Assembly: GCA_964016885.1 (NCBI GenBank)
Contig: OZ024740.1
Span: 347,386,001 to 347,450,000, forward strand
Source: Eledone cirrhosa
Taxonomy: Eukaryota
Direction: 5' to 3'
DNA: 64,000 nt
The first letter of the stretch is position 1; the number at the start of each line of letters is the position of its first letter. The notes under the pieces were generated by a model that saw only the letters and a list, made by a program, of their open reading frames with translations, searched no databases and was not told the origin of the DNA. Below are positions 1,564-63,434 of this stretch, piece by piece. Position numbers and translations under genes: made by a program.

Positions 1564-1757
1564 GGGTGATGGATTGGCCGTATCGGTAGTGAGTCGGACG
1601 CTATGCTTTTCAGTATAGAGTTACGTCCCTTTATGAACTGAGTTCAAATCCCACCGAGGCTAACTTTGCCTTTCATCATTATGGGGTCGATAAAATAAAG
1701 TACCTTAATTTACTTGGAAATTGCTGACCTTGTGCCAAAAGTAGAAACAATATTATT
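1564..1757 (+). mobile_element. tRNA-derived SINE
   Basis: Pol III A-box-like head, B-box GAGTTCAAATCC, core GCCTTTCATC..GGGGTCGATAAAATAAAGTACC, tail GTAGAAACAAT(TAT). More than 10 copies in the window. Confidence 0.85.
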
Positions 1758-1829
1758 CGATATGAAACTCATATACATGTATGCTTATATATATATATAT
1801 ATATATGAGTGTGTATGTGTATATATGTA

Positions 1830-1874
<45 letters not shown>

Positions 1875-1876
<2 letters not shown>

Positions 1877-2990
1877 CGAAGGAAATGTGGTAAGGAACCA
1901 GGTGGACCATAACGCACCAAAGTACTCAATACTTGAGGTAGTAGAGTGGGTAATAGGAACCAGTAAGACCCCGACAGCTGAGCTCAAGCCGTTTCGACGG
2001 CTAATTCTGGACTAAATGAAAATTTATCCTGGTATTTAAATAGCCGATCTTCTCAAGGGGTAATTCCATATATGGTCAAAGTGATTGTCAAAAATCAGTA
2101 GTAATTCTGTGGTTGCAAATTAGTAGGGGAGATGGTGGCTAAACCTGCCAGTAGGAGAAAGAGGGGAGGGGGTGGAGTAGACCCAATCAAGCGTTGGTAG
2201 TGCCAGCTACAGCTGGGCATGAGGTCAAAGAAGATACAGGGGAGGGGGAGGGGGAGGAAGTCGGAACGGTAGGTAGAACAATGGGGGGTAGAAATATATA
2301 GGAAAGAAAAAATACTGAGAGTGAAGAAAAGCAAATAAGTGTAAAGAAAAAAGTAAAGTAAATTAAATTCTACGACCTAGGTCTCTAGCTATTGTTAGGC
2401 TAGAATAAATAAATAAAGAAAGAAAGAAAGAAGTAAAGAAAGAAATAAAGAAATAACGAAATAAGTAAAAGAACTAGGTGGGACGGAATTGGCAAGGACC
2501 CTTTTAAGAGGTATAAGTACGTAAATGATACGGTGACGGGTCAACAAAAGGGGCCAAAACACTAAAGAGACTACCACGAAATAAACAATAAAGGTTTCCA
2601 TCCCGGGCACAATGCCAGCAACCACCCAGTGCAGCAAAGTGAACTTGTACGAGATAATAATTCTGAGTCCCGAGAAAAATATATACTAATGCTAACTCTA
2701 AAAGATCTAAAACAAGCTACATGAAAGTTCGTACGAAGTAAAGGTAGAATACGGAAAAATAAATTCAGAATCCACCCCGCCCAAAAGAAAATCGAAGAAA
2801 GAAATACTGAAACGAAAAAATAAGGCATAAGTGCCACTAAGAAATATAGAGGGCACAGAGAATAGTGGGAGCGGTCGGAAAAAGGGGACAAGTATCCGGG
2901 GTCTAAACCAACTGCTATAAAGGGCGGAGTCCGCCAAATCTATCATAGACTAGGGGAGGGGGTGGGGGTACTGTCGGGGTCTTACTGGTT

Positions 2991-2995
<5 letters not shown>
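1875..2995 (-). mobile_element. Non-coding PLE terminal fragment with short inverted 5' copy, flanked by (TA)n
   Basis: The same end (aacgaagg..tggtaaggaacc) abuts (TA)n at 1875, 11649, 33777 and 57657. 2971-2995 is an inverted copy of the region around 1953-1977. Carries an HHR. Confidence 0.7.
1968..2061 (-). ncRNA. Type I hammerhead ribozyme with U3:A8 core
   Basis: Minus strand: acccc TTGAGAA gatcggcta...tagccgtc GAAA cggcttgagctcagctg TC ggggt. Stems I, II and III all pair. GUC cleavage triplet. Confidence 0.8.
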
Positions 2996-10667: not shown

Positions 10668-12006
<1,339 letters not shown>

Positions 12007-22783: not shown

Positions 22784-22826
22784 GTCACTGAAGAGGTCAC
22801 AGAATGTGTGACGAAAGAACTTTGAC
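22784..22826 (+). ncRNA. Type I hammerhead in a Naiad-like pLTR fragment (about 22715-22958)
   Basis: gtca CTGAAGA g-gtcaca-gaatg-tgtgac GAAA gaac TT tgac. Identical to 55372-55414. Confidence 0.75.
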
Positions 22827-22953: not shown

Positions 22954-24989
<2,036 letters not shown>

Positions 24990-25759: not shown

Positions 25760-26480
25760 ACTTTAATACATGAATACACTTACATCTAACTATACACATC
25801 AAACATATATATATATTTACTTATTTATATACATTTTCACATATATATACATACATATGGTCGCTTTTAGACACACTCATTATAGCATATTCGCACCTAT
25901 TCTCATCAGCATATCTTTCCATTATTAGTGTGGTAATTTAAGGTTATTAATATACATATATATGTTGAGAAGAGATTGTTTTTATATTTTTCTAACTAGA
26001 TTGAGGTTTATATAGTTGGGGGGATGTCCCTCTTTTGTGTAATATTCAGCTTGTAGTGAAAAAAAGGGTTTTAGTTCGGTGACGGCAGAATAATGTTCGT
26101 TCAATTCTGTTATTAAGCAATTTCTTCTTGTGTGTGATTATGTAATAAATCTCAAAATTACACAATTTGCAAAAATTTTGGCTACTGGAAAAGCTTTGGG
26201 TTTTAGCTAATTTCTCCCATTTTAGGGTAAACTTTTGATCTCTATCCCTGAGCGTCCAAGCTTTTTCTGCTAAAGTTGTTACATTTCTTTGGCTCTGGTG
26301 TTTTATTGAGTAAGAATGCCTATATAATCGAGATTTAAACGATGTTGCCGTTGATCCCACGTAATACCACTCGTTGCCTCCGGATTTAATGGTACACTTA
26401 TAAATGATATTTTTTTCCAGGCAGTTATTACCGACCGAGGGGGCAGTTGTCAGGATAGGTGCAGTTACAGTGGTGTACGT
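24990..26480 (-). mobile_element. 5'-truncated PLE (GIY-YIG plus 3' UTR)
   Basis: CLEKNIIYKC...YVGSTATSFKSRLYRH...CKLC..E...LLNNRIE. 3' end abuts (TA)n. Decayed HHR-like motif at 25103-25148(-). Confidence 0.85.
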
Positions 26481-26604
26481 TGGGTTTTCTCTGGAGTAGT
26501 ATTGCGGACGAACTTAGGAACTACAACTGGAACCGTCGAGCAAACTCTACGTGAGCTGTTCATCTACTGTGTGTAATATTTAAATTAAAACACTACGGAA
26601 AATA

Positions 26605-28724: not shown

Positions 28725-28913
28725 TAATTGTTTCTACTTTAGGCACAAGGCCAGCAAACACCCAGTGCATTACTGGTACTTTATTTTATCGACCCCGTAA
28801 GGATGAATGGCAGAGTCGACCTCGGCGGGATTTGAACTCAGATCGTAAAGGGACGTAACTATCCTGGAAAGCATGGCGTCCGACCCTCTACCGATACTGC
28901 CAATCCACTGCCC
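28725..28913 (-). mobile_element. tRNA-derived SINE inserted in the PLE 3' UTR
   Basis: Full-length copy close to the family consensus. Confidence 0.9.
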
Positions 28914-31244
28914 TTATATATAATATAATATAATAAATAAGTTATTGTTAATATTGTTAACATTAACGTTTTACATCAGTTATTATATTAGGATCATGTA
29001 ATACATATATACTATAAATATACAAATCAAACTTCATGAATCATAAAAGATAAGAACCAGATTCAAAATAAATAAATAAATGGTTTGCGATCCTATAAGT
29101 GCCAAATATCTAAGCAATATAATTTAAAAATACAAGAACATTTTTAAGGATCTATATTATAGTATAATATCATATTTAAAGTGTCTGCAAACATGAGAAA
29201 GAGAAGACTTAAGATTTTCATCAACCCGAAGGTAAACCTAATTTAATTATATTAAAAAATAATAATCATTATATAATTTAGAAAATATTTAACAAATATA
29301 ACACTAGAAAGTCCTTAAGTATCTAAGGCACTTATAAATGTAGCTTATTAAACTAGATATATATATTTGTCTAAATACATACAGAGTATTCTGTTCAAAA
29401 CTCATTATATTAGTGATCTATATACAAATAATAAATAATAAATACAATTATTGTTAATAATGTTATAATTGAAGTTTTACATCAAGTTAAGTGGAAAAGG
29501 TTTGTCGACTAGGATCGTGTGCGACACATATACCATAAATATATAAATCACACATCTTGAATCTTAAAACCAACATACTCCAAATGAATAAATAAATGAA
29601 TGGTTTACAGTTCCTTGTTAACCATATAAGCTATATATTTAAAAAAATACAAAAATCCAGACCAAATAAAATGTACTTACACAATAAAATGATATGCATA
29701 TTCATCAAGAGATCATGTTAACAGTCTATATGTTTATATATTTATATAGAACCCTTAATCTAACATTAATCATATCGTAAATGAATAAAAATTATTATAA
29801 GGTTTTATAATCTGTTATAACATTTTCCGCACTCAGTTGATAAGATACGTCAAAAATTATAACTTATTTATTCAGTGTTTTTTCCTGACTTTTTGCGAGG
29901 CTTGGAATGTAGAAGAAGGTTTATGTAGGCAATTTGAGAATAATTCACTTTTTTAGTTAATTAAATTTTCATAATTAGTAATTAATAATAGGGTATCCAT
30001 GGTACATAGATTGCAGTTAGGTGATATTGAAGAATTCAAGTAGATTCGACTATTACACAGCTTCGACCAAGAAATCGAGTATTTTAAATTTTTGTCTTTT
30101 AATGACCATATAAGTTGTGATAAAGAAGTCGAAGATTTCCCATTAGGATTCGAGAAAGAACATTTGTGATTCGAAAATCTTAATTTAAATGTCGATGAAG
30201 TTGCACCAATATAGTTGTATGTGATGTTATTTGCTTTTACGGTGCATTTATAGACCAGATTGCTATCCAGACAATTATTTTGCAGAGGGCAATTTGATCT
30301 ATTTCTATAATTACATTTTGATTTATTGTTATTACTATAAATTGGACAATTGACATTAAGATTGCTAGTACTTTGAAGTGTTCTATTGATTGTGCTTAGA
30401 TTAATGTTATTGTTATTCCTAGTATTAATATTGCTAGTGTTATTATATTCATTATCGCTAATTGTTTGTTGGTTATGATTTAGAATTCTACTATTTATTT
30501 TTGCGATGTTCTGGGCCATATTCATAGTTGTAGAATAAGAAAGTTAATTGTGTGTCTGTTAAATATGGAACGGTATTTATGTTGAATGGGGAAGCATTTA
30601 TCTAAAGCTTTAAAGAATAGATTTGCGAGTGGTGTTTTTATTGCTACAGAAGCTGGGGGAGCAAACCATATAATTGATTTAGTTCTGATTTTTTCCCCGA
30701 TTTAATCACGGTATTGGTGTTTGTATTATAATTTTTAAAATCTCGTTTATATATGTTAGTATGCACCCTCTGTATTATATGTAATGTTTTCATGTCTCAA
30801 TCTTAAGGTATATAAATATTGAGTTTTGTCATATATTATTCACTACCATGACTGAATCTTAACCATCTACTAAGTCAGGGTATGTCATGCATCATCTTAT
30901 TTTATCTGCTGAGGGCGTACTGTTGAAGATAGCTCATTACCTCTGAAATATGTATAATAAAATATACTTGATCACACGAATGTCTATGTTTGTTAATATT
31001 TTGAATTAATATTAATAACTCCGGAAAACCATATCTGTGGAGTGCTTCTAATCTATTGTAAAACTCATTCTTTGTTTTATTCATTGAACCGTGCTTAACC
31101 TTTAAATATATATATATAATTGGTGTTGGATGCTTAAAGCGTCCGTATGCGGTAGGGCGTTTGAGCACTCGATGCTCTCACAGAGCAGAGTGTGATATCA
31201 CAAAAAAAAGAGAAGCAGTGTTGCGACGAATGGAATTTATTGAA

Positions 31245-33744: not shown

Positions 33745-33777
<33 letters not shown>

Positions 33778-33821
33778 ACGAAGGAATTGTGGTAAGGAAC
33801 CAGATGGACCATAACATCTAG

Positions 33822-34137: not shown

Positions 34138-36141
<2,004 letters not shown>

Positions 36142-46683: not shown

Positions 46684-46947
46684 TATATATATATACATAA
46701 TCGGAGAAAGCTAATAGCGATACTCCGGCGAAATTCCAACTCACTCAACAAACAGGAAATATCTGAGTATATACCTAATTAAACGTTCGGGGTGCTAACT
46801 AATTGTAATGTGTGGAAAATTGGCTGTATCACTTTCATATGAGATATATCAATATATATATATATAGTAATAATAATAAATTTGAAGACTAAAATCCAAA
46901 GACCGCTCGATAAGGATAAATATATATCAAATATATAAGAACCGTAG

Positions 46948-48672
46948 GGCTAATTACCGCGACGTTACCCTCAATTTATCGAATGGCTTGTATTACCCGT
47001 ATAGAAATCCGAATGATACGCTTAATTACATAAGTAAGCATTCTAACCATCCTGCCAGCATAACCAAGAACCTGGTAAGAAACGTTTCTTTGAGGCTTTC
47101 CCGTCTATCTACTAACGAGCATATTTTCAACGACCATTCCACATATTACAACGAAGCTCTTGCTCGGAGTGGATTTGTCGATAAGGTAGCATATACAGAG
47201 TACGAGAATACACCTAGAAGAAATAGATCCCGACGCATTGTATGGTATAACCCACCATATGATATGGAGGTGGCCACACCATTAGCTAAGATCTTTCTAT
47301 CCCTTATTACGAAGCATTTCCCCCCTACACATAAAGATAGTACATTTTTTTAATAGAAATACTATTAAAATTTCTTACTCTACGACTCCTAACCTTGCAC
47401 ATTACATCACAGCTTCAAATTTAGCTAAACTACCTAACCGTAGGAACACGTGCAACCCTGTAGTTAGTTAGTACTAACTGTAATTGTAGGAATCGGGTTG
47501 ATTGCCCCCTATCCGGTAAATGCCTCTCTAGTAACATTGTCTACAAATGTAAGGTTGAAACACCCACGTCCCGTAGGGCCTATATAGGGTTAACCGCCAA
47601 TAGATTCAAGCAGCGTCTTTACATGCATACCCATTCTTTTCGTTACCCTCTAAGAAGAAATATGACGTCACTTTCAGCTTATATCTGGAGTCTAAAAGAC
47701 ACCACACCCAATATAAGTTACAGTGGGAGATCCTAGCTTGGACTAGATCGTTAAACGGAAATAAAAGATCTTGTGACCTCTGCGCCGCCGAGGCCCTGGA
47801 AATACTCTACGCCAAAGACAACATCTTAAACAAAAGAAATCTGAGGCAATTTCGGCTTGTAAACATAAATTTCACAGAACTTTCCTATATTACAGCCCCA
47901 CATTATACCCTAACGGATAGTACGATCTATACGCGGATATTTTATGTCTTGATGTGGTAGCTAAGTATATGTTATGTTTATACCATTACTTATTTGCATA
48001 GGTAAGTATATATTAGCTGTATGTTTTGTGAAGGTACGTATACTTTCTCGTACGTATATTTGATAGTATATGTTATGGCGTATATTTTATATATTCTGGT
48101 ACATATGCTTTTGGTTATGTGTATACGTGAGTTTTGCGTCTGTGTGAGTTTGCGGGTTCGTACGTATGTAGGATGTGTGTATATGTGTACTTCGTGTATA
48201 TGTGTACTTTGTGTTTGTGTATTTACATGTAGGTATGTGTGTGCCCTTGTTATATACGTATTTATTTATTTATATACGTTTATTTAATTATTTGTATACA
48301 CGCACGCACACACACACACACATTTATATGTGCGTATATTTGTATACCTATTGCGAGTGTTTTCGCGTATGCTTGTGTATGTACGTATATGGTTGCGTGT
48401 ATGTATTTATTTAATTTGTTACCTCTGTATTTTATTTACTTTATTCTTAACTCTGAAGCCGAGAATCATTCGGTTTCCTAGTTAGAATTTTAGTCTACGA
48501 CTTCAGTTATACCATTTACGTGGTTTTGTGTTTGCGTGCAATTGTTCTCCACGCTCGACATATGACGTATTATATTCGTTTGTTCCGTTCATTGCCAGAT
48601 AACGTGTCTATAAACCACCTAAGAGAATATTAGTCTACGACTTCTTTTATACCATAAACGTGGTTTTGTCTT
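46948..48672 (+). mobile_element. 5'-truncated PLE (RT thumb, linker, GIY-YIG, 3' UTR), frameshifted
   Basis: YISKHSNHPASITKNL..RLS.LS; IVWYNPPY; CNCRNRVDCPLSGKCLSSNIVYKC; YIGLTANRFKQRLYMH; CDLC..E. Direct repeat at about 48490 and 48630. Confidence 0.9.
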
Positions 48673-48674
48673 TT

Positions 48675-51253
48675 TCACCAACACGAGCGAAGTTGCACAA
48701 CAAACACACGATGGGAGAGAAAAAATCCTCAACGCTCACATGATGATGTGGACTGACATCCTAAAGCCAAGCAGACGCACTGCCAACAACTTCCAGGCGT
48801 CTAACAATGGCATACCACCCTTGTATGGGCTCCGCAAAGACCACAAGACAGTCGACGACCCGACAACAGGACCACCAACAAGACCCGTATGCGGAGCTAA
48901 TATAGCTAGCAACTACAGGATCTCCTACTTCCTCTCAATGGTTATACGCCCCATAATCAAGATGTCCCCAGATGTATGTGACAGTACAGAGGACCTCCTC
49001 AGCAGAATCAGTGAGTGCAACAAAAACAGGAGCCTATCCAACTGCATAATAGGCAGCATGGATGTGGTGTCACTGTACCCATCCATTAACATTGATTTTG
49101 CTGTGAAAAGATGTGTGGAGATGATCATTGAGGGTGAGGTGGAGTTCTGCGACGTACACACAGACGAACTGGGCCTCCTACTTAGATTTACCTACGACAC
49201 TGACTACCTAGACAGCCATGACCTTAGATGTTTCTGCCCTAGTAGACCTATAAGAGGTAGACCCCCACCATAATCTCAATGGCAAAAAAGACTCCCATGG
49301 GAAGGTGGATTGGGTGGACCAAAGCTATACGGACCCCCCAAAACAATGATCAGGTAAGAAAAATGGTCGCACATGCAATAGGGGCTAGTATCAAAACTAC
49401 CCTAAAGGGCCACATATTTAAGTTCAATGAGAAAATCTACACCCAAAATGAGGGAGCAGCCATCGGCGTCAGCATAGCTGGTGATGTTGCCAACCTTTTC
49501 ATGGTATGGTGGGAAAGGAGACTTAAAGATCTCCTTAATGAAAGCTCTATAGACCTCATCATGTACTCTCGTTATGTAGACGATATCAATATAGTTATAA
49601 GAACACCCCCACTAGAGAGCACTAACAAGTTTGATTTAGAACGTAGCACGATGGAAAGCATCCAGCAGATAGCTAATTCCATACATCAGAGTATAACTGT
49701 AACTATCGACTTCCCTTCCAAACACCCTAACAATAGACTACCTGTATTAGAAACAGAACTCTGAATTAACACTATAGACGAGAGAGCCCAAATTCTCCAC
49801 TCACACTATGCTAAACCCATGGCCTCCAAATACCTGATACTCAAAAACTCAGCAATGTCCAGTAGTGCTAAGTTTAATATTCTGATCGCAGATTTGGTAC
49901 GAGTGATGAAGAATGTATCCCGCATGTGCGACCCAACAGAAATGGAAAGACACATCCAACACTTCATCAACCGCATGCAGTTTTCTGGCTACAACCAAAG
50001 AGACAGAGTCAGAGTATACGAAGGAGCCATGGAAAAGTATAAGACCCTCATAGAACTGGACATGAAAGGAATTTGCCCATTATACAGGAGCAAATCATGG
50101 AATAGCTTAGATAGGGCTAGACATAAGATAGGGAAATCCACATCATAGTACGACAACCAGAGATACCAGAGTGTCATGTTTGTGGACGCCACCCCTGGAG
50201 GGAAATTAGCTAACCAGTGTAGAAAGGCCCTGAGAAAGACCCACTTAAAAATAAAGGTGGTAGAAAAGCCAGGAACCACCATAAAATCCCTGATCAGCAA
50301 AACCTACCCTTTTAAGAAAACCCACTGTACCAATAGGAAATATATCATATGTAAGGTGAACCCCCGGATAAACTGTAAAACTAGAAACGTAGTCTATAGC
50401 ATAAGATGTACAGAGGGTACTTGCAGAAACATGACAACAACATACATAGGTGACACAGCTCGTAGCATAGGTGAAAGGATAGACCAACACTGGGGGGAAC
50501 TAAGAGGACGAAAAAACGGGTCATTACTATACGAACATGAGAGACAACAACATGACGGTAACATAGACAACATAGAAATGAGAATAATATCTAAAAATAG
50601 AAATGACCCAGCAGATAGGCAAATCAGAGAGGCCAGTGAAATAGAAATTAGAAGACCAAAGCTAAACAGAAAGAATGAATGGAATAACAACAACACCCAA
50701 ACAAACAACACTGACCTAAGAGAAGTATAAATAAGTAAATAAAATAAGGTAAATAAATACATACACAAGCACAATAAAAACAAGCACTAGTCACCCATCA
50801 CACAGCAAACATAACACTATACACACACGCAAACGCATGCGCAAAGAAGACAAAATAAAATAAACAAACAAGCAAATAAATAAATATATAGACAGGTTGA
50901 ATAAAAAATGGCGTAGACATACAACACAACAGGAGGAAAATATAACACCACTGACGATGTTGCAGATGTGCAACGAAAGATTTATGATAAACTATATATA
51001 TGTGTTTGTGTCTATATTGTATCTGTATTATTTTTGACCGTCGGTCAGTCAATGGCAACATTGAGGACCGAGTAAGTTAGATTACCGATATAAAAGCGAG
51101 AAGCGAGAAGCGAAAACCAACCAAACAGTGAGTGTGTTCTGTTATCAATTCTGGCAATATTACACAAATATGACCCTCCCCAAGTATAACAATATTTGTT
51201 TCGACACACGATTTCATATAAAAAACCTCGCAAAACTAATTCATCGCCGCTAT
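48675..51253 (+). mobile_element. 5'-truncated Naiad-like PLE (RT plus GIY-YIG), pseudogenised
   Basis: LYGLRKDHK, PTRPVCGA, GSMDVVSLYPSI, QNEGAAIG, RYVDD, HYAKPMAS, MFVDATPGG, NVVYSIRC, YIGDTARSIGERIDQH. One frameshift near 49275 and stops at 49762 and 50146. pLTR with HHR, then (TA)n. The clade call is from recalled motifs only. Confidence 0.9.
50947..50988 (+). ncRNA. Minimal type I hammerhead in the Naiad-like pLTR
   Basis: acca CTGACGA t-gttgca-gatg-tgcaac GAAA gatt TA tgat. Stem I has one mismatch. Confidence 0.65.
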
Positions 51254-54820: not shown

Positions 54821-54892
54821 TATTTCATCTGACGAACGAAACACGCATCTGTTACAATCGTCTAACTTCGTGAAACCTTGGGTAATGGAATA
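54821..54892 (+). ncRNA. Canonical type I hammerhead in an island of about 150 bp between (TA)n tracts
   Basis: tatttcat CTGACGA acgaa...ttcgt GAAA ccttggg TA atggaata. 8 bp stem I, GUA triplet. Confidence 0.85.
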
Positions 54893-55094: not shown

Positions 55095-55776
<682 letters not shown>

Positions 55777-57652: not shown

Positions 57653-57889
57653 TATATAACGAAGGTGGTGTAGTAAGGAACCAGATGGACCATAACGCAC
57701 CAGAGCACTCAATACTTAGGGTAGTAGACTCGGTAATAGTCCAGAAATAGGTGTCGAAGCGACTTTAGCCCAGCCATCGGGGTCATACATTTTCCTATAT
57801 ATATATAATACCAGTTACAGCATTTTATTCATTATCAATTGTGGATATGCAGAATATTGTTAAGTTGCATATTTGTACAAATAGTGATG

Positions 57890-58219: not shown

Positions 58220-61200
58220 TTACAGATATATACTCAGAGTCGGCCCATTCACTCGGGCCATTCTTGCTTCTCTCACCCATCTTTCAACAAAATGCTGGGA
58301 AGAGAGCACTTCCTTCTCTACTCTGATTTTCCTTTTCAAATGAAATTTGAAAAAGTCAATCAGAGCATCACCGAAGAGGTAAGTGCTCGTCTTCAGCCCT
58401 TTCAAACGTGTCCACCATACTATCTCTTTCGCCATGGCCACCAGACAGATAAAAACTGCCTGCCCTTCCCGGCTAAAGGAGGAGGGCGGGGCAATCCTCA
58501 CGATAGACTCAGATGATAGCTGGATCCGTCCTAAACGCGACAGCAGGTGTTCGACATGAACCCACAAGTCAGCAATTTTCGGACACTGGACGAGTGCGTG
58601 CAGGACGGTTTCGTCGCCCTGCGCGCATCTCGGACATGCCCGGCAGACGGCACCTCCATGCCTGTAGAGTTTATCCCGAACTGGCAAGGCTCCTCGGTAG
58701 CATTGCCAGGCCAGAGATTTCTGGAAGTTGTCCATAGGCCCCGGCCCGAAAGTTCTTCCGAAGAGATTGGCTAGTTGATTTTCGTCGACGCCTAGAGTTT
58801 CCCCAAGTACGTCGTCGCTCTTCCCCTCCACTAATCCTCTATAGAACGCCGAGGTGGAGTTTCCACCGATCACATTGCCCGATTGGTCGAGGGCTGTGAG
58901 CGCCTGAAGACATTCCAGTCTCCAGGCGCTCCCTCTCGGTCTTCGCTTGACCCATGACTGCAGCTCCGTCAAGGAAACGAGCTGGGGAAAAACGCGTCTA
59001 GCAAACGGCGACCACACCTGATCACCGTCGAGGAAGAGGTGGAGATGTCGTAGCCTGAGCGCGTGCCTGCGCATCATCAGCCACGGCATGCCCAGCCCTC
59101 CACGTAGCGGGTGTTGACAACAGATGGACCGCCTGACCATCGGAGCACGTCCCTTCCACAAAAAGCGAAAGAGCAAACGCTCCAGCGCAGTCAGGCGAGG
59201 CTTAGGACAAGGTACGACGGTTAGGCGGTAGCAGATGACAGACGCGATGTACGCGTTAGCCACCTCCGCTCGACCTTTCAGGGATAGCTTCCTCTCCGCC
59301 CATTTCTGGGTGAGAGAAGCCACCCTGCTCGTCACCTCGTCCCAGTTTTTGTCCGTCTGGAGGTCCGGACCGAACCAGACCCCTAGCAATTTAACCGGTC
59401 CGTCCGTCCAGCGCCCGACGACGCTGTTGGACGGCATGGACCTGCCTCTCCAGGTGCCGAGCTGCAGGCCCACTGACTTTTCCTGGTTGATCATTGCTCC
59501 TGTCACCGCTTCGTATTCTCTTAGTGTAGTGCCGATCGCCTCGATGTGTTTGGCGTTCGACACCACTACGGTGACATCGTCCGCATATGCTGACACGGAT
59601 CTTCCGCATCCTAGTTCGCGCGGGACTCCCCTCAACGTCTCCAGTTTGTGCAGTAATGGCTCGAGAGTCAATACGTACAAGAGGGACGAGAGGGGACATC
59701 CTTGGCGGACCGAGCGCATGATGTTGAACGGTTCCGACAGGTGACCGTTCACTCTCACCACAGAGCAGATGTCGCTGTGCATGGCAGCGATCCAGCCTCT
59801 GAAGACGGGCCCAAAGCCAGCCGCCCTCAGGACTGCCGCTAGGTAACGATGGTCGACCCTATCGAAAGCTTTCGACTGATCTAAATTGATCAAGGACCCA
59901 CCCGTGCCAGGTTCCCTAGCTACCCTCTCTACGATGTATCGCATGAGGTGGAGGTTGTCGTGGATGGATCTGTCGGGAATGGCGCATGTCTGCGCCTCTC
60001 CCACCAGACCACCAACGACAAGCGCCAACCTCTTTGCTAGCACCTTGGCCAAAATCTTAAACTCTGTGTTTAGCAGAGTTATGGGCCGGAAATTGTCTAT
60101 GTTATCCCCCTTGTTCGGATCCTTTCTCAGCAGTGCCACCGCTCCTCGGCTCACAGAACTGGGAATTCTCCCGTTCTGTTGCCAGTTGCAGTAGACGTCC
60201 GCCAAGAGGCCTCCGAACAAGTCTGGCATCTGTACGTAAAGTTCATAGGGCAGACCATCCAAACCAGGCGATTTACCCCTTGTGCAGCCAGTCATTGCCT
60301 CCCGTACTTCAGCGGCTGTTATCGGCTTTTCGCAACACTTCGCCTCAGTGGCCGAGAGCCGCGGCAGTCCGTCGAGGTAGACACTAAAGTCCATCCCTCT
60401 ACCCGGCCCCCCGCTGCCCCCGAACAGCTGAGCGAAGTGTCGCTGAAAAGCTTCACACATTTGCCCGGGATCGAGTAGCATGCGCCCGTCGTGGTCCACC
60501 AAAGACCGGATCGTGGCTTTGTTGCCACGACGCGCCTCCGCCACTCGGGCCCATTGAACGGCTTTCGTCCCCTCGTGTCTGAGAGCACGCACCCTAGCTC
60601 TGACAACGCAGCCTTCGTGATTTGCATTGAAGAATTGGTCAAGGGCCAATTTCGCCGCAAGCACGTCGGTCGCAATGCCTTTGCTAAGCGCCTCGTCTAA
60701 TTTTCTAACTAGTTCTCCCTCTGCTCTATTTTTCTCTATTGCTAAAGCCTTACTAAACCTAATCGATTCTATTCTAATCGCTCTTTTCAGAGCAAACCAC
60801 CACTTGTTGTTGACGATGGCCCCCGTCAACGCCCGCTTAACTAGTTCGCTAATCCGGTCTCTGTAGGCCTTGCGCGCTGGTAAGGACGCGTTTAGCTTCC
60901 AGTAGCCGGGTCCTCGTCTATGAAGCCTATCTAAGTCAAGCACACAGATCACGAATTTGTGGTCCGTGTAGCTGACTATCTTGAATTGTGGACAGCCTAT
61001 GCTAGACCTATCTATTTCCCTACAAAATACTCTATCTAGATACGATCTGGATGACCCTATGCGGTTTGTCCAAGTCCACATTGGCACATTCGGGAAATCC
61101 AATCGGTACCTGTCAGACAGTTCAAAACGCCTGAGCAGGTTGGTGAGGCTCTTGCACCCTCCACCCCTATCCGCTAATCCCACACAGTCCCAGCGTGCAT

Positions 61201-61639
61201 CTAAGATGCCGTTCCAGTCGCCCACTAACACTAAAGAGCGGGACGTTCCAAGAAAGGTCTCCAGACGCCGGAAGAAATCAGGCCGCCCTGCTCCTGTCGG
61301 GGCATAGACGGCCACTAGCCTGAAAGCTTGCCCGTCTCCGCTGGTCACGTCCAGCACCACCAGCTTACCCTCTGGGTCCAGGAAGATGGCCCGTATGGCG
61401 AGATCCACACCTCTCCGAAAAAGTACAGCAACTCCTCCACCGGATCCAGGACGGCTGGGAGATGCGTACACATCGTAGCCGCCGAAGATCGGTGCGAAGG
61501 CCCGTGCTTCGGAGATTCTGGTCTCGCTGATGGCCACTACATCTATGTTTAGTGACCTGAGGTCGTTGAGCAGGTGACCCTGCTTCCATGACGACCCCAA
61601 GCCACGCGCATTTATGCTGCCTATTCTGAGTGAGGTCAT
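58220..61639 (-). CDS. Tx1-type ORF2: APE endonuclease, reverse transcriptase and C-terminal zinc finger (1139 aa, intact)
   Basis: SINARGL, ISET, VYAP, GDWN, YLDR, TDH (APE); GYWKLN; KSPGLDGL, FRPITLLN, DQSKAFDRV, VRQGCPLS, AYADD (RT); CPRC..ETVLHALVQC. Confidence 0.97.
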   Translation of the reverse strand: MTSLRIGSINARGLGSSWKQGHLLNDLRSLNIDVVAISETRISEARAFAPIFGGYDVYASPSRPGSGGGVAVLFRRGVDLAIRAIFLDPEGKLVVLDVTSGDGQAFRLVAVYAPTGAGRPDFFRRLETFLGTSRSLVLVGDWNGILDARWDCVGLADRGGGCKSLTNLLRRFELSDRYRLDFPNVPMWTWTNRIGSSRSYLDRVFCREIDRSSIGCPQFKIVSYTDHKFVICVLDLDRLHRRGPGYWKLNASLPARKAYRDRISELVKRALTGAIVNNKWWFALKRAIRIESIRFSKALAIEKNRAEGELVRKLDEALSKGIATDVLAAKLALDQFFNANHEGCVVRARVRALRHEGTKAVQWARVAEARRGNKATIRSLVDHDGRMLLDPGQMCEAFQRHFAQLFGGSGGPGRGMDFSVYLDGLPRLSATEAKCCEKPITAAEVREAMTGCTRGKSPGLDGLPYELYVQMPDLFGGLLADVYCNWQQNGRIPSSVSRGAVALLRKDPNKGDNIDNFRPITLLNTEFKILAKVLAKRLALVVGGLVGEAQTCAIPDRSIHDNLHLMRYIVERVAREPGTGGSLINLDQSKAFDRVDHRYLAAVLRAAGFGPVFRGWIAAMHSDICSVVRVNGHLSEPFNIMRSVRQGCPLSSLLYVLTLEPLLHKLETLRGVPRELGCGRSVSAYADDVTVVVSNAKHIEAIGTTLREYEAVTGAMINQEKSVGLQLGTWRGRSMPSNSVVGRWTDGPVKLLGVWFGPDLQTDKNWDEVTSRVASLTQKWAERKLSLKGRAEVANAYIASVICYRLTVVPCPKPRLTALERLLFRFLWKGRAPMVRRSICCQHPLRGGLGMPWLMMRRHALRLRHLHLFLDGDQVWSPFARRVFPQLVSLTELQSWVKRRPRGSAWRLECLQALTALDQSGNVIGGNSTSAFYRGLVEGKSDDVLGETLGVDENQLANLFGRTFGPGPMDNFQKSLAWQCYRGALPVRDKLYRHGGAVCRACPRCAQGDETVLHALVQCPKIADLWVHVEHLLSRLGRIQLSSESIVRIAPPSSFSREGQAVFICLVAMAKEIVWWTRLKGLKTSTYLFGDALIDFFKFHLKRKIRVEKEVLSSQHFVERWVREARMARVNGPTLSIYL

Positions 61640-62047: not shown

Positions 62048-63148
62048 CTATTTTCTTGTCGTTGTTGCTGGGTGTGTGTGTTTTGTTGTTGTGTTTGCGA
62101 TGTTGGTGCTTGTGGTGGTGGTGTTGAAGGTGTTGTTGTTGTTGGCGGTGGGGTTGTCTCTTACTTTTTTCTGTACTTGCAGTACAGTTGTTTTGTCCTC
62201 GATTCCGACGAGGACAGACGCGGCCAGCCAAGAAGGGGCCATTCCGGGGGGGACGTGGGTCAGTTTGACCCTCACAATTTTTTGCCCGCAGTAGGAGGGC
62301 ACCAACACCATTTCCTCGCTCCTTAGGGTCACTACGGATTGGGCCTTTGCCTCCTGGGGTGTGGCAAAAAGTACGTCTACGGTGGCATATTTTTCGCCTC
62401 GGGTGATGTGCGTTTTCCGCTGCCACACAGACCCCAAGGCTTTTTGTATTTGGTCCTCTGTGGCTCTTTCCACCCTACGGGATTTTGTACTTACTGTACG
62501 GTACGTGACCGTACAGTGCTGTTGGGTTTCGAAAAAATTTTCCGCTGCCTTGCAGATTGCTCGGTGTCCATTCTTTGTCACCATCTTCTTCGCTTCCTCT
62601 AATTCCTCATTTGTTATGAGGATTGTTTCCAAGTTTTTCGCAATACCTGCAAATGAGATTGGTTTTTCTTTGCTGCTGTTGTTGTTGTTGTCGTCAGAGC
62701 TGCTGTTACTTTTGTTGTTGCTGCAGGTACTACGACTACTGCCTTCGCCGCTGTTGCTGTGGTTGTTGTTGGTGTTGCTGCTGCTAATGCTGTTGTTGTT
62801 TATGCTGCTGGTGATGCTGTTGCGGCTGCTACTGTTGTTTTCATTGTCACTGTTGCTGTTGTTATTACGGCTGCTACTGCTATTATTCCTGACGTCAGAC
62901 GAATGAACTGGGTTTTCGTATTTCCCGCACACCTGTTTCGTCGCTGTCGTCGTCGTCGTGGAGAAACCTTGCACGCTTTGCACGAGACTTTTCTTTTCTT
63001 TCGTCGCTTGCGAAAGAGAAGGGAGGGAGAGAGACACATTTAAAGAAGGGAGGGAGAGAGACAATCTTCTCTCTGCTGTAGTGATGATTGAGGAAGAAGA
63101 AGACGGAATGAGTGGGAGTGACCTATGCAAATTCTTTTTCGTAGCCAT
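62048..63148 (-). CDS. LINE ORF1, probably disrupted; continues as 61675-61983
   Basis: Lies upstream of ORF2. N/S-rich tract, ISFAGIAK motif, VRVKLTHVPP (RRM-like). No zinc knuckle. A premature stop is followed by a second reading ending 35 nt before the ORF2 ATG. Confidence 0.65.
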   Translation of the reverse strand: MATKKNLHRSLPLIPSSSSSIITTAERRLSLSLPSLNVSLSLPSLSQATKEKKSLVQSVQGFSTTTTTATKQVCGKYENPVHSSDVRNNSSSSRNNNSNSDNENNSSSRNSITSSINNNSISSSNTNNNHSNSGEGSSRSTCSNNKSNSSSDDNNNNSSKEKPISFAGIAKNLETILITNEELEEAKKMVTKNGHRAICKAAENFFETQQHCTVTYRTVSTKSRRVERATEDQIQKALGSVWQRKTHITRGEKYATVDVLFATPQEAKAQSVVTLRSEEMVLVPSYCGQKIVRVKLTHVPPGMAPSWLAASVLVGIEDKTTVLQVQKKVRDNPTANNNNTFNTTTTSTNIANTTTKHTHPATTTRK

Positions 63149-63434
63149 GTTGATTTTTTTGTTTAAAATAAATATTGGGTACAAAACCCCAATAAGCAGT
63201 TATTTAACCCCGAAGAGCCGAATAACGGGCAGAAAGACCCCTCTCACGAGGAGGAGGGTGTTTTTGTCTACAAGTTCGTTAAAGTTTTAAACAATTTACA
63301 ATTGTTATAGTGTTCAAAATTTACAATACCTTACAGAGCCGAGCCTCCGTCAACCATAGCATTCAATAATAATAATAATAATAATAATAGTGATAATAAT
63401 AATAAAAAGAAAAAGGGGAAGAAAAATTAATTTT

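Follow-up and report, generated by a model that had tools for sequence, protein, structure and literature searches.

A type I hammerhead motif with a U3:A8 core near the 3' end of a high-copy, probably Penelope-like repeat

The core of the hammerhead ribozyme includes a tertiary pair between C3 and G8 (PMC3884650). A U3-A8 pair at these positions was first reported from nature in 2011, with several examples of a variant that earlier work had shown to be active in vitro (Perreault et al. 2011, PMC3088659), and about 1,300 U3-A8 motifs were later found via the Cercyon Penelope-like element of Schistosoma mansoni (Cervera and De la Pena 2014, PMC4209133). Penelope-like elements are described as showing 5' truncation, an adjacent inverted copy, microsatellite targets and a tail of usually 30-40 bp (PMC8557442). 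For the anole element PAc, the tail is described as bounded by two internal sites at which reverse transcription starts (PMC11167929). Published hammerheads of the Penelope type are reported to cut poorly or to need protein (PMC4209133, PMC11167929), and that of the Serpula element to cut as a monomer (PMC4209133).

We analyzed a 64-kb stretch of DNA (the window) in which a first-pass annotation had proposed a hammerhead with a U3:A8 core and a GUC site at 1968..2061. The sequence, the MFE fold and a descriptor scan set against shuffles confirmed this motif, and its coordinates were right; absent from the annotation were its minus-strand orientation and the high-copy Penelope-like repeat around it, the copies of which are mostly without the U3:A8 box. 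The motif could be accepted as a natural variant as claimed, but its novelty had been overrated in view of published natural U3-A8 cores, among them the Schistosoma motifs (PMC4209133, PMC3088659). A literature search found no paper on the motif of this family, and the main text of a 2026 Octopus vulgaris repeat paper contained neither 'hammerhead' nor 'ribozyme'; the supplements of PMC4209133 and PMC8557442 may list the family. The motif is a new example of a variant already published, including in Penelope-like elements, and as a further natural U3-A8 case in an element class known for it, the core variant itself adds little. The motif consists of the following parts:

1968..2061, minus strand: type I hammerhead motif with U3:A8 core (descriptor, shuffles, folding)
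2057..2061, minus strand: 5' strand of stem I, pairing with 1972-1968 through one A-U and four C-G pairs (folding)
2067-2062 with 1961-1956, minus strand: predicted extension of stem I across a 6-nt bulge (folding)
2050..2056, minus strand: core box UUGAGAA, that is U3 U4 G5 A6 G7 A8 A9, with U3 at 2056 and A8 at 2051
1996..2049, minus strand: stem II and loop II (2049-2041/2003-1996)
2040-2004, minus strand: loop II, 37 nt long, inside which a hairpin is nested at 2029-2009
1992..1995, minus strand: GAAA box, that is G12 A13 A14 A15.1 (sequence)
1974..1991, minus strand: stem III with palindromic loop (folding)
1968..1973, minus strand: C17 (1973) and 3' strand of stem I (1972-1968) (sequence)
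1987..2002, minus strand: competing 6-bp hairpin between the 3' strand of stem II and the 5' strand of stem III (prediction only)

The MFE fold, the pair probabilities, the descriptor and the shuffles agreed on three helices round the core with helix I open, as in type I hammerheads. The conserved core was present in the sequence (U4 G5 A6 N7/A9, G12 A13 A14, A15.1-U16.1, H17 and G10.1-C11.1), and positions 3 and 8 can form a Watson-Crick pair, here U3:A8. The stems were found to be complete, as had been stated. Stem I had 5 bp; stem II had G10.1-C11.1 and an A-U pair (2 bp), one bulged U and then 6 bp round the long loop; and stem III had 5 bp (one of them G-U) in addition to A15.1-U16.1 and closed a 7-nt loop inside the palindrome UGAGCUCA. 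By hammerhead numbering, the GUC triplet places the predicted scissile bond at 1973/1972.

The MFE fold of the isolated 1968-2061 segment was the hammerhead (-22.7 kcal/mol), with pair probabilities of 0.70-0.97 for stem I, 0.61-0.75 for stem II and 0.47-0.75 for stem III. The fully constrained hammerhead fold made up about 0.21 of the ensemble, and the stability of the segment was ordinary (z = 0.17). Since stems II and III share strand sequences, the 6-bp hairpin at 2002-1987 is possible, and it is predicted to bury the GAAA box. When about 90-200 nt of upstream sequence were included and long-range pairs allowed, the stem I probability fell from 0.98 to below 0.2 in equilibrium folding; with RNA ending at 1950 and pairs limited to 150 nt it stayed at 0.8-0.98. 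In the longer folds, stem I was out-competed by upstream C-rich tracts or by downstream 1948-1950. The helix III segment folded with -26.3 kcal/mol as a dimer versus -4.9 kcal/mol per monomer. Helix III has 6 bp, more than the minimal dimer-type motif, in which it is absent or 1-2 bp long; the palindromic loop permits a dimer too. A possible contact between helices I and II was seen by eye (loop II 2033-2029 with 1963-1959), the downstream side of which is altered in another copy in the window (copy B, below) and in a sister branch.

According to PMC4209133, the Cercyon motifs of S. mansoni are, like ours, of type I with U3-A8, a helix I of 4-5 bp, a helix II of 7-8 bp, G10.1-C11.1 and a palindromic helix III region, and occur mostly as single motifs in truncated copies. 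The Cercyon motifs are minimal and expected to work as dimers, whereas the 6-bp helix III of the present motif can close as a monomer; our motif also differs from them in its 37-nt loop II with a nested hairpin and in having no extra base between A9 and G10.1. The bacterial, phage and other hammerheads described in PMC3088659 have the same compensatory U3-A8 pair in a different context, many of them with pseudoknots, none of which is established in the present motif. Fungal and protist Penelope-like hammerheads, as presented in PMC4209133, share with ours a stable helix III and helices I and II without recognisable tertiary contact. Those elements are telomere-associated and endonuclease-less, whereas copies of the present family are scattered through (TA)n tracts of an animal-type genome. 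A possible monomer fold would make U3:A8 versus C3:G8 measurable in a natural setting, unlike in the minimal Penelope hammerheads, and canonical-core motifs of other repeats in the same window are available for comparison.

The descriptor scan identified 1968..2061 as the only full U3:A8 hammerhead match in the window. We stripped the window of microsatellites, which left 57,989 nt, dinucleotide-shuffled it 2,893 times and applied the UUGANAA descriptor to both strands of every shuffle. With stems I/II/III of at least 5/6/5 bp, thresholds chosen after the match was known, there were two matches in the 2,893 shuffles, as compared to 22 with stems of at least 4/5/4 bp and 1,017 when stem III was not required. 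The three-stem motif is well above chance, while a two-stem version would not be. Strict CUGANGA searches miss the motif, as had been anticipated. The Rfam hammerhead models also gave no match at the gathering score or at E<=10, though a canonical-core control site was missed by them as well. Pattern scans of metagenomes and prokaryote genomes gave no match. A single match in a viral contig was rejected as a chance 20-mer with only 31 bases aligned.

Hammerhead-like motifs with other cores were also seen in the window. Canonical CUGAAGA minimal hammerheads at 22788-22822 (+) and 55376-55410 (+) lie in two copies of another repeat; they have a 4-bp stem I, a 6-bp stem II and almost no helix III, with a (TA)n end about 170-250 nt downstream. 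At 34138-36008 (+), units of about 522 bp that are 98% alike follow one another in tandem. Every unit has a CUGACGA core, a long loop II and a palindromic helix III region (34190, 34713, 35235 and 35757), and the stretch is a candidate retrozyme-like or partial-tandem Penelope array. A single hammerhead-like motif at 54829-54884 (+), between (TA)n tracts, has a CUGACGA core and an 8-bp stem I; it was found with a loose descriptor for which about 0.13 such matches are expected per shuffled window.

A 1.1-kb repeat (1875-2995), flanked on either side by (TA)n, contains the U3:A8 hammerhead at a distance of about 95 nt from its 3' end. The window contains four loci of this element, all in (TA)n, the first of which is given here in its parts:

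1875..1952, minus strand: 3' tail of the element, 78 nt long and directly next to (TA)n (repeat comparison)
2062..2970, minus strand: multi-copy non-coding body upstream of the hammerhead, 5'-truncated here, with no recognisable ORF
2971..2995, plus strand: inverted arm, then (TA)n; exact reverse complement of 1953-1977
11649..11842, no strand assigned: short, palindromic copy B, made up of the 3' end as far as the 2012 equivalent and an inverted arm, without the U3:A8 box
33777..33815, minus strand: short copy D, tail only
57658..57798, no strand assigned: short, older copy C, tail plus inverted arm to the 2014 equivalent, without the U3:A8 box

The forward arms begin at the 1875 equivalent in all four loci and the inverted arms at 1953 in all three loci that have one. 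Three of the four loci combine 5' truncation with an adjoining inverted copy. Apart from the first, the loci all stop short of the U3:A8 box. The inverted arm 2971-2995 passes the predicted cut site by 5 nt and carries the same minority base at 1976. A tail extension is present at one end (1875-1952), with 78 nt versus the usual 30-40. A hammerhead in the terminal repeat and a preference for microsatellites, the latter known from some clades, are further Penelope-like traits seen here. We therefore regard the repeat as a high-copy Penelope-like element on its anatomy, since no linked ORF of the EN+ Penelope-like type, with telomerase-like RT and GIY-YIG endonuclease, was found in 2062-2970 of this 5'-truncated copy. 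A search for relatives of a 45-residue frame open across the 3' end of the element found none.

The closest described arrangement is that of Poseidon PAc from Anolis carolinensis (Frangieh et al. 2024, PMC11167929), in which the hammerhead likewise lies upstream of two fixed start sites bounding the tail, the targets are AT-rich and uncut RNA is the dominant template. PAc differs in its C3-G8 core and in an ORF that starts in stem II, whereas the present element has no recognised ORF, a 78-nt tail and copy ends massed inside loop II. Just inside both fixed ends of the present element we noted a 16-nt imperfect direct repeat (1893-1908 and 1955-1970, +), spaced 18 nt from 1875 and 2 nt from 1953, which is possibly a recognition signal for two start sites. 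Within the element, about 45 nt (2590-2640, minus) are similar to the 3' end of a 190-bp short repeat that is abundant in the window (compared at 28726-28776 (-) and 1700-1760 (+)), as an old insertion or a shared 3' signal.

The 25-bp perfect inverted repeats with TA flanks, and the palindromic copy B, could also suggest a MITE, a DNA element that targets TA and is bounded by terminal inverted repeats, in which the hammerhead would be a passenger. This reading is disfavoured and we consider it highly improbable, since only one of the inverted repeats has the tail outside it, the arms differ in length between copies, and depth declines one-sidedly from the 3' end, as for reverse transcription.

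To compare the core across the family we used public runs, in place of the genomic copies that the annotation had suggested. Four of the 21 runs listed were chosen and aligned to 1876-2990 at 80% likeness, with differences counted from 5%: contigs X1, X3 and X6, which carry three species labels from two studies (X1 may be the source of the window), and the RAD reads X19. The family was abundant, with 16,787 contigs aligned in one run. The core bin 2028-2065 was covered in all four runs (summed depth 160,966 in X1, 50.9 in X3 and 29.1 in X6; about 386 reads in X19). A G8 would appear as T>C at 2051 on the plus strand. Neither 2051 nor 2056 was among the 40 of 180 variant rows listed, and the T>C tallies were taken to include the other rows because those of X19 add up to 174 of the 180. 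T>C places at 5% or more numbered one in X1 (row 2601), none in X3, none in X6 and two in X19 (2601 and one unplaced). As these tallies leave none for 2051, G8 lies below 5% in X1, X3 and X6. Record 9 of X3 (1991-2236) had no differences, and record 19 of X6 (1967-2111) had one, by inference the 1976 change carried by all X6 depth, so that U3 and A8 were both present in contigs under two further species labels. In these alignments A8 is the family state, with G8 below 5% in three of the four runs. They also indicate that U3:A8 is the family state, fixed at least in the alignable subfamilies, with a minority C3 at 2056 possible.

Two diverging branches were seen in the same runs. A sister variant with a loose end behind 2025 was represented by 46 contigs in X1 (agreement 0.72) and one each in X3 and X6. 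When aligned by eye after a 2-nt insertion, it retained G10.1, A9, A8 and A6, its letters ending before position 3; its loop II was altered, its pair 10.2-11.2 was broken, and in its X3 form the free position 7 was changed. Another branch, diverging behind 1959, had 156 contigs in X1 and 2,420 reads in X19, with the core outside the letters shown. At 1976, A>G on the plus strand made up 2.04M of the 2.85M depth in X1, so that the majority stem III pair is G-C where this copy has G-U.

The annotation had named a CUGAGGA family consensus, from which this copy would depart by two chance transitions, as the case against it. Some room for a canonical C3:G8 consensus with two private transitions comes from the listing of 40 rows, from the unplaced T>C place in X19 and from diverged subfamilies, which at less than 80% likeness over the core fall outside the alignment. 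We nevertheless found no T>C at 2051 at 5% or more in X1, X3 or X6, the core was identical in the contigs of the two further labels, the sister variant keeps A8, and the listed rows and tallies of the aligned runs gave no sign of copies in which the core is intermediate or canonical. A canonical consensus is thus hardly credible. The double compensatory change, which the annotation took to speak for selection on catalysis, may reflect such selection or not, since a fixed pair is also obtainable from one founder amplified many times.

We also determined where the copies end, using summed contig depths, which are not copy numbers. These were 2.85M at 1976, 2.01M at 2004, 0.25M at 2022 and 0.06M at 2137 in X1, and 558, 245, 72 and 35 at the same positions in X3. 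The end of most copies falls inside loop II, at about 2004-2022, which leaves them with one half of the ribozyme. Among the ten joints reaching past 2000, seven ended at 2010-2017 and one each at 2003, 2007 and 2025; of the seven arms within the window, three ended at the 2012-2014 equivalents. Loose ends before 1953 were (TA)n in all four runs. We rejected 7,138 X19 read ends at 2006 as biological ends, the site being an AATT word and X19 a RAD library; X19 reads through 2006 were enriched for a 2004 variant that destroys AATT (2,717 of 3,415, versus 36% in X1). The 824 X19 ends at 2017 may share this cause and were not relied on.

All 11 joints tabulated from the public runs were strand inversions and none returned on the same strand. 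This bears on metazoan non-LTR retrozymes (Cervera and De la Pena 2020, PMC7229834), in which, as here, a type I hammerhead lies in a non-coding repeat and which are described in a mollusc. A retrozyme, with tandem hammerhead repeats processed into circular RNA, would suit the non-coding animal repeat and the stable stem III. It is nonetheless very unlikely, because there is one hammerhead in at least 1.1 kb, no short tandem unit of 150-450 bp, no same-strand joint, and a predominance of 5'-truncated and inverted copies instead.

At the predicted cut site, the tabulated joints gave no pile-up of ends (one arm end at 1972, from one contig, and one at 1975). Depth in X1 was steady across the site, 3.04M in 1914-1951 and 3.07M in 1952-1989, with inverted arms adding depth from 1953. 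Since there was neither a drop nor a pile-up and the arm 2971-2995 crosses the site, we infer that uncut RNA was copied.

Our best explanation, which we hold with good though not full confidence, is that a high-copy family of Penelope-like elements, transcribed from the minus strand, carries this motif as the hammerhead of its pseudo-LTR (3' end), with U3:A8 fixed at least in the alignable subfamilies, and that the ribozyme probably serves to trim read-through or tandem RNA. The U3-A8 pair would substitute for the tertiary C3-G8 pair, and RNA holding both halves might, either as a monomer or in dimers formed via the palindromic loop, cut at 1973/1972. We consider the isolated family motif rather likely to cleave. 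Cleavage is probably slow or conditional because there is one hydrogen bond fewer, no evident contact between loops I and II, and competing folds. Transposition would rely on the uncut share: at nicks in (TA)n, reverse transcription would begin from the fixed positions 1875 and 1953 and would copy mostly uncut RNA, which would yield forward and inverted arms.

The steady X1 depth at the cut site and the arm across it would also fit a vestigial ribozyme in the same element, with U3:A8 fixed by one founder lineage, cleavage negligible or irrelevant, and transposition using uncut RNA. Competing folds are predicted, and in the account of PMC11167929 hammerhead mutants of the anole element left insertion in vitro unaffected. 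Against this, the diverged sister variant keeps the core positions and G10.1 while position 7, loop II and pair 10.2 vary, and stem III is intact in the family majority. We consider a vestige unlikely, although it is the alternative to be taken most seriously.

In addition to trimming as the preferred function, the boundary inside loop II was of interest. Candidate causes are the start of a transcript, a splice acceptor (AG at 2013-2012), an RT stall and a short non-autonomous derivative; in part, subfamilies whose loop II differs may also have produced it as an artefact of alignment. A start or an acceptor is plausible because D. virilis Penelope is described as having an internal promoter and an intron in the corresponding region (PMC2377424, PMC4209133). 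An initiator-like hexamer occurs at 2019; it is weak support for a start, since such words are common in the element (11 non-overlapping places in about 980 nt). No GTRAG donor was found in 2014-2970 of this copy. A doubtful but specific proposal is that the main template RNA's 5' end, whether start site or splice acceptor, lies at about 2010-2017 and splits the ribozyme inside loop II. Ordinary transcripts would then carry the 3' half only, locked in the hairpin that buries GAAA; copied from internal starts, they would give rise to 140-nt half-ribozyme insertions in roughly 10- to 20-fold excess. Assembly of the whole, deliberately slowed U3:A8 hammerhead would be limited to read-through RNA at the downstream repeat, and this hammerhead would set the amount of uncut RNA for full-length transposition. 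If true, this split would give Penelope-type hammerheads a concrete role. Ends clustered in loop II, away from the cut site, bear on the role of hammerheads in Penelope-like elements in any case, and the abundance of the family (four loci in 64 kb) permits statistical counting of ends.

The window was microsatellite-rich and eukaryotic in character, and contained further retroelement sequences. Its microsatellite load and abundant short repeat family suggest an octopus-like genome. A nearly whole reading frame at 48623-50730 (+), broken by stops and a frameshift and with one weak Pfam RT match, is one that we take, from its motifs, to be a Penelope-type RT and GIY-YIG frame. Four other stretches are presumably GIY-YIG-like remnants on the same grounds (23709-24071, 26046-26513, 29953-30543 and 46886-47837); they match one another, and 23709-24071 sits between 610-bp inverted repeats. 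At 58220-61639 (-) we found an intact 1,139-aa LINE ORF2 with endonuclease, RT and zf-RVT domains (Pfam) and, upstream of it, an ORF1-like frame at 62048-63199 (-). Together these form a young LINE element.
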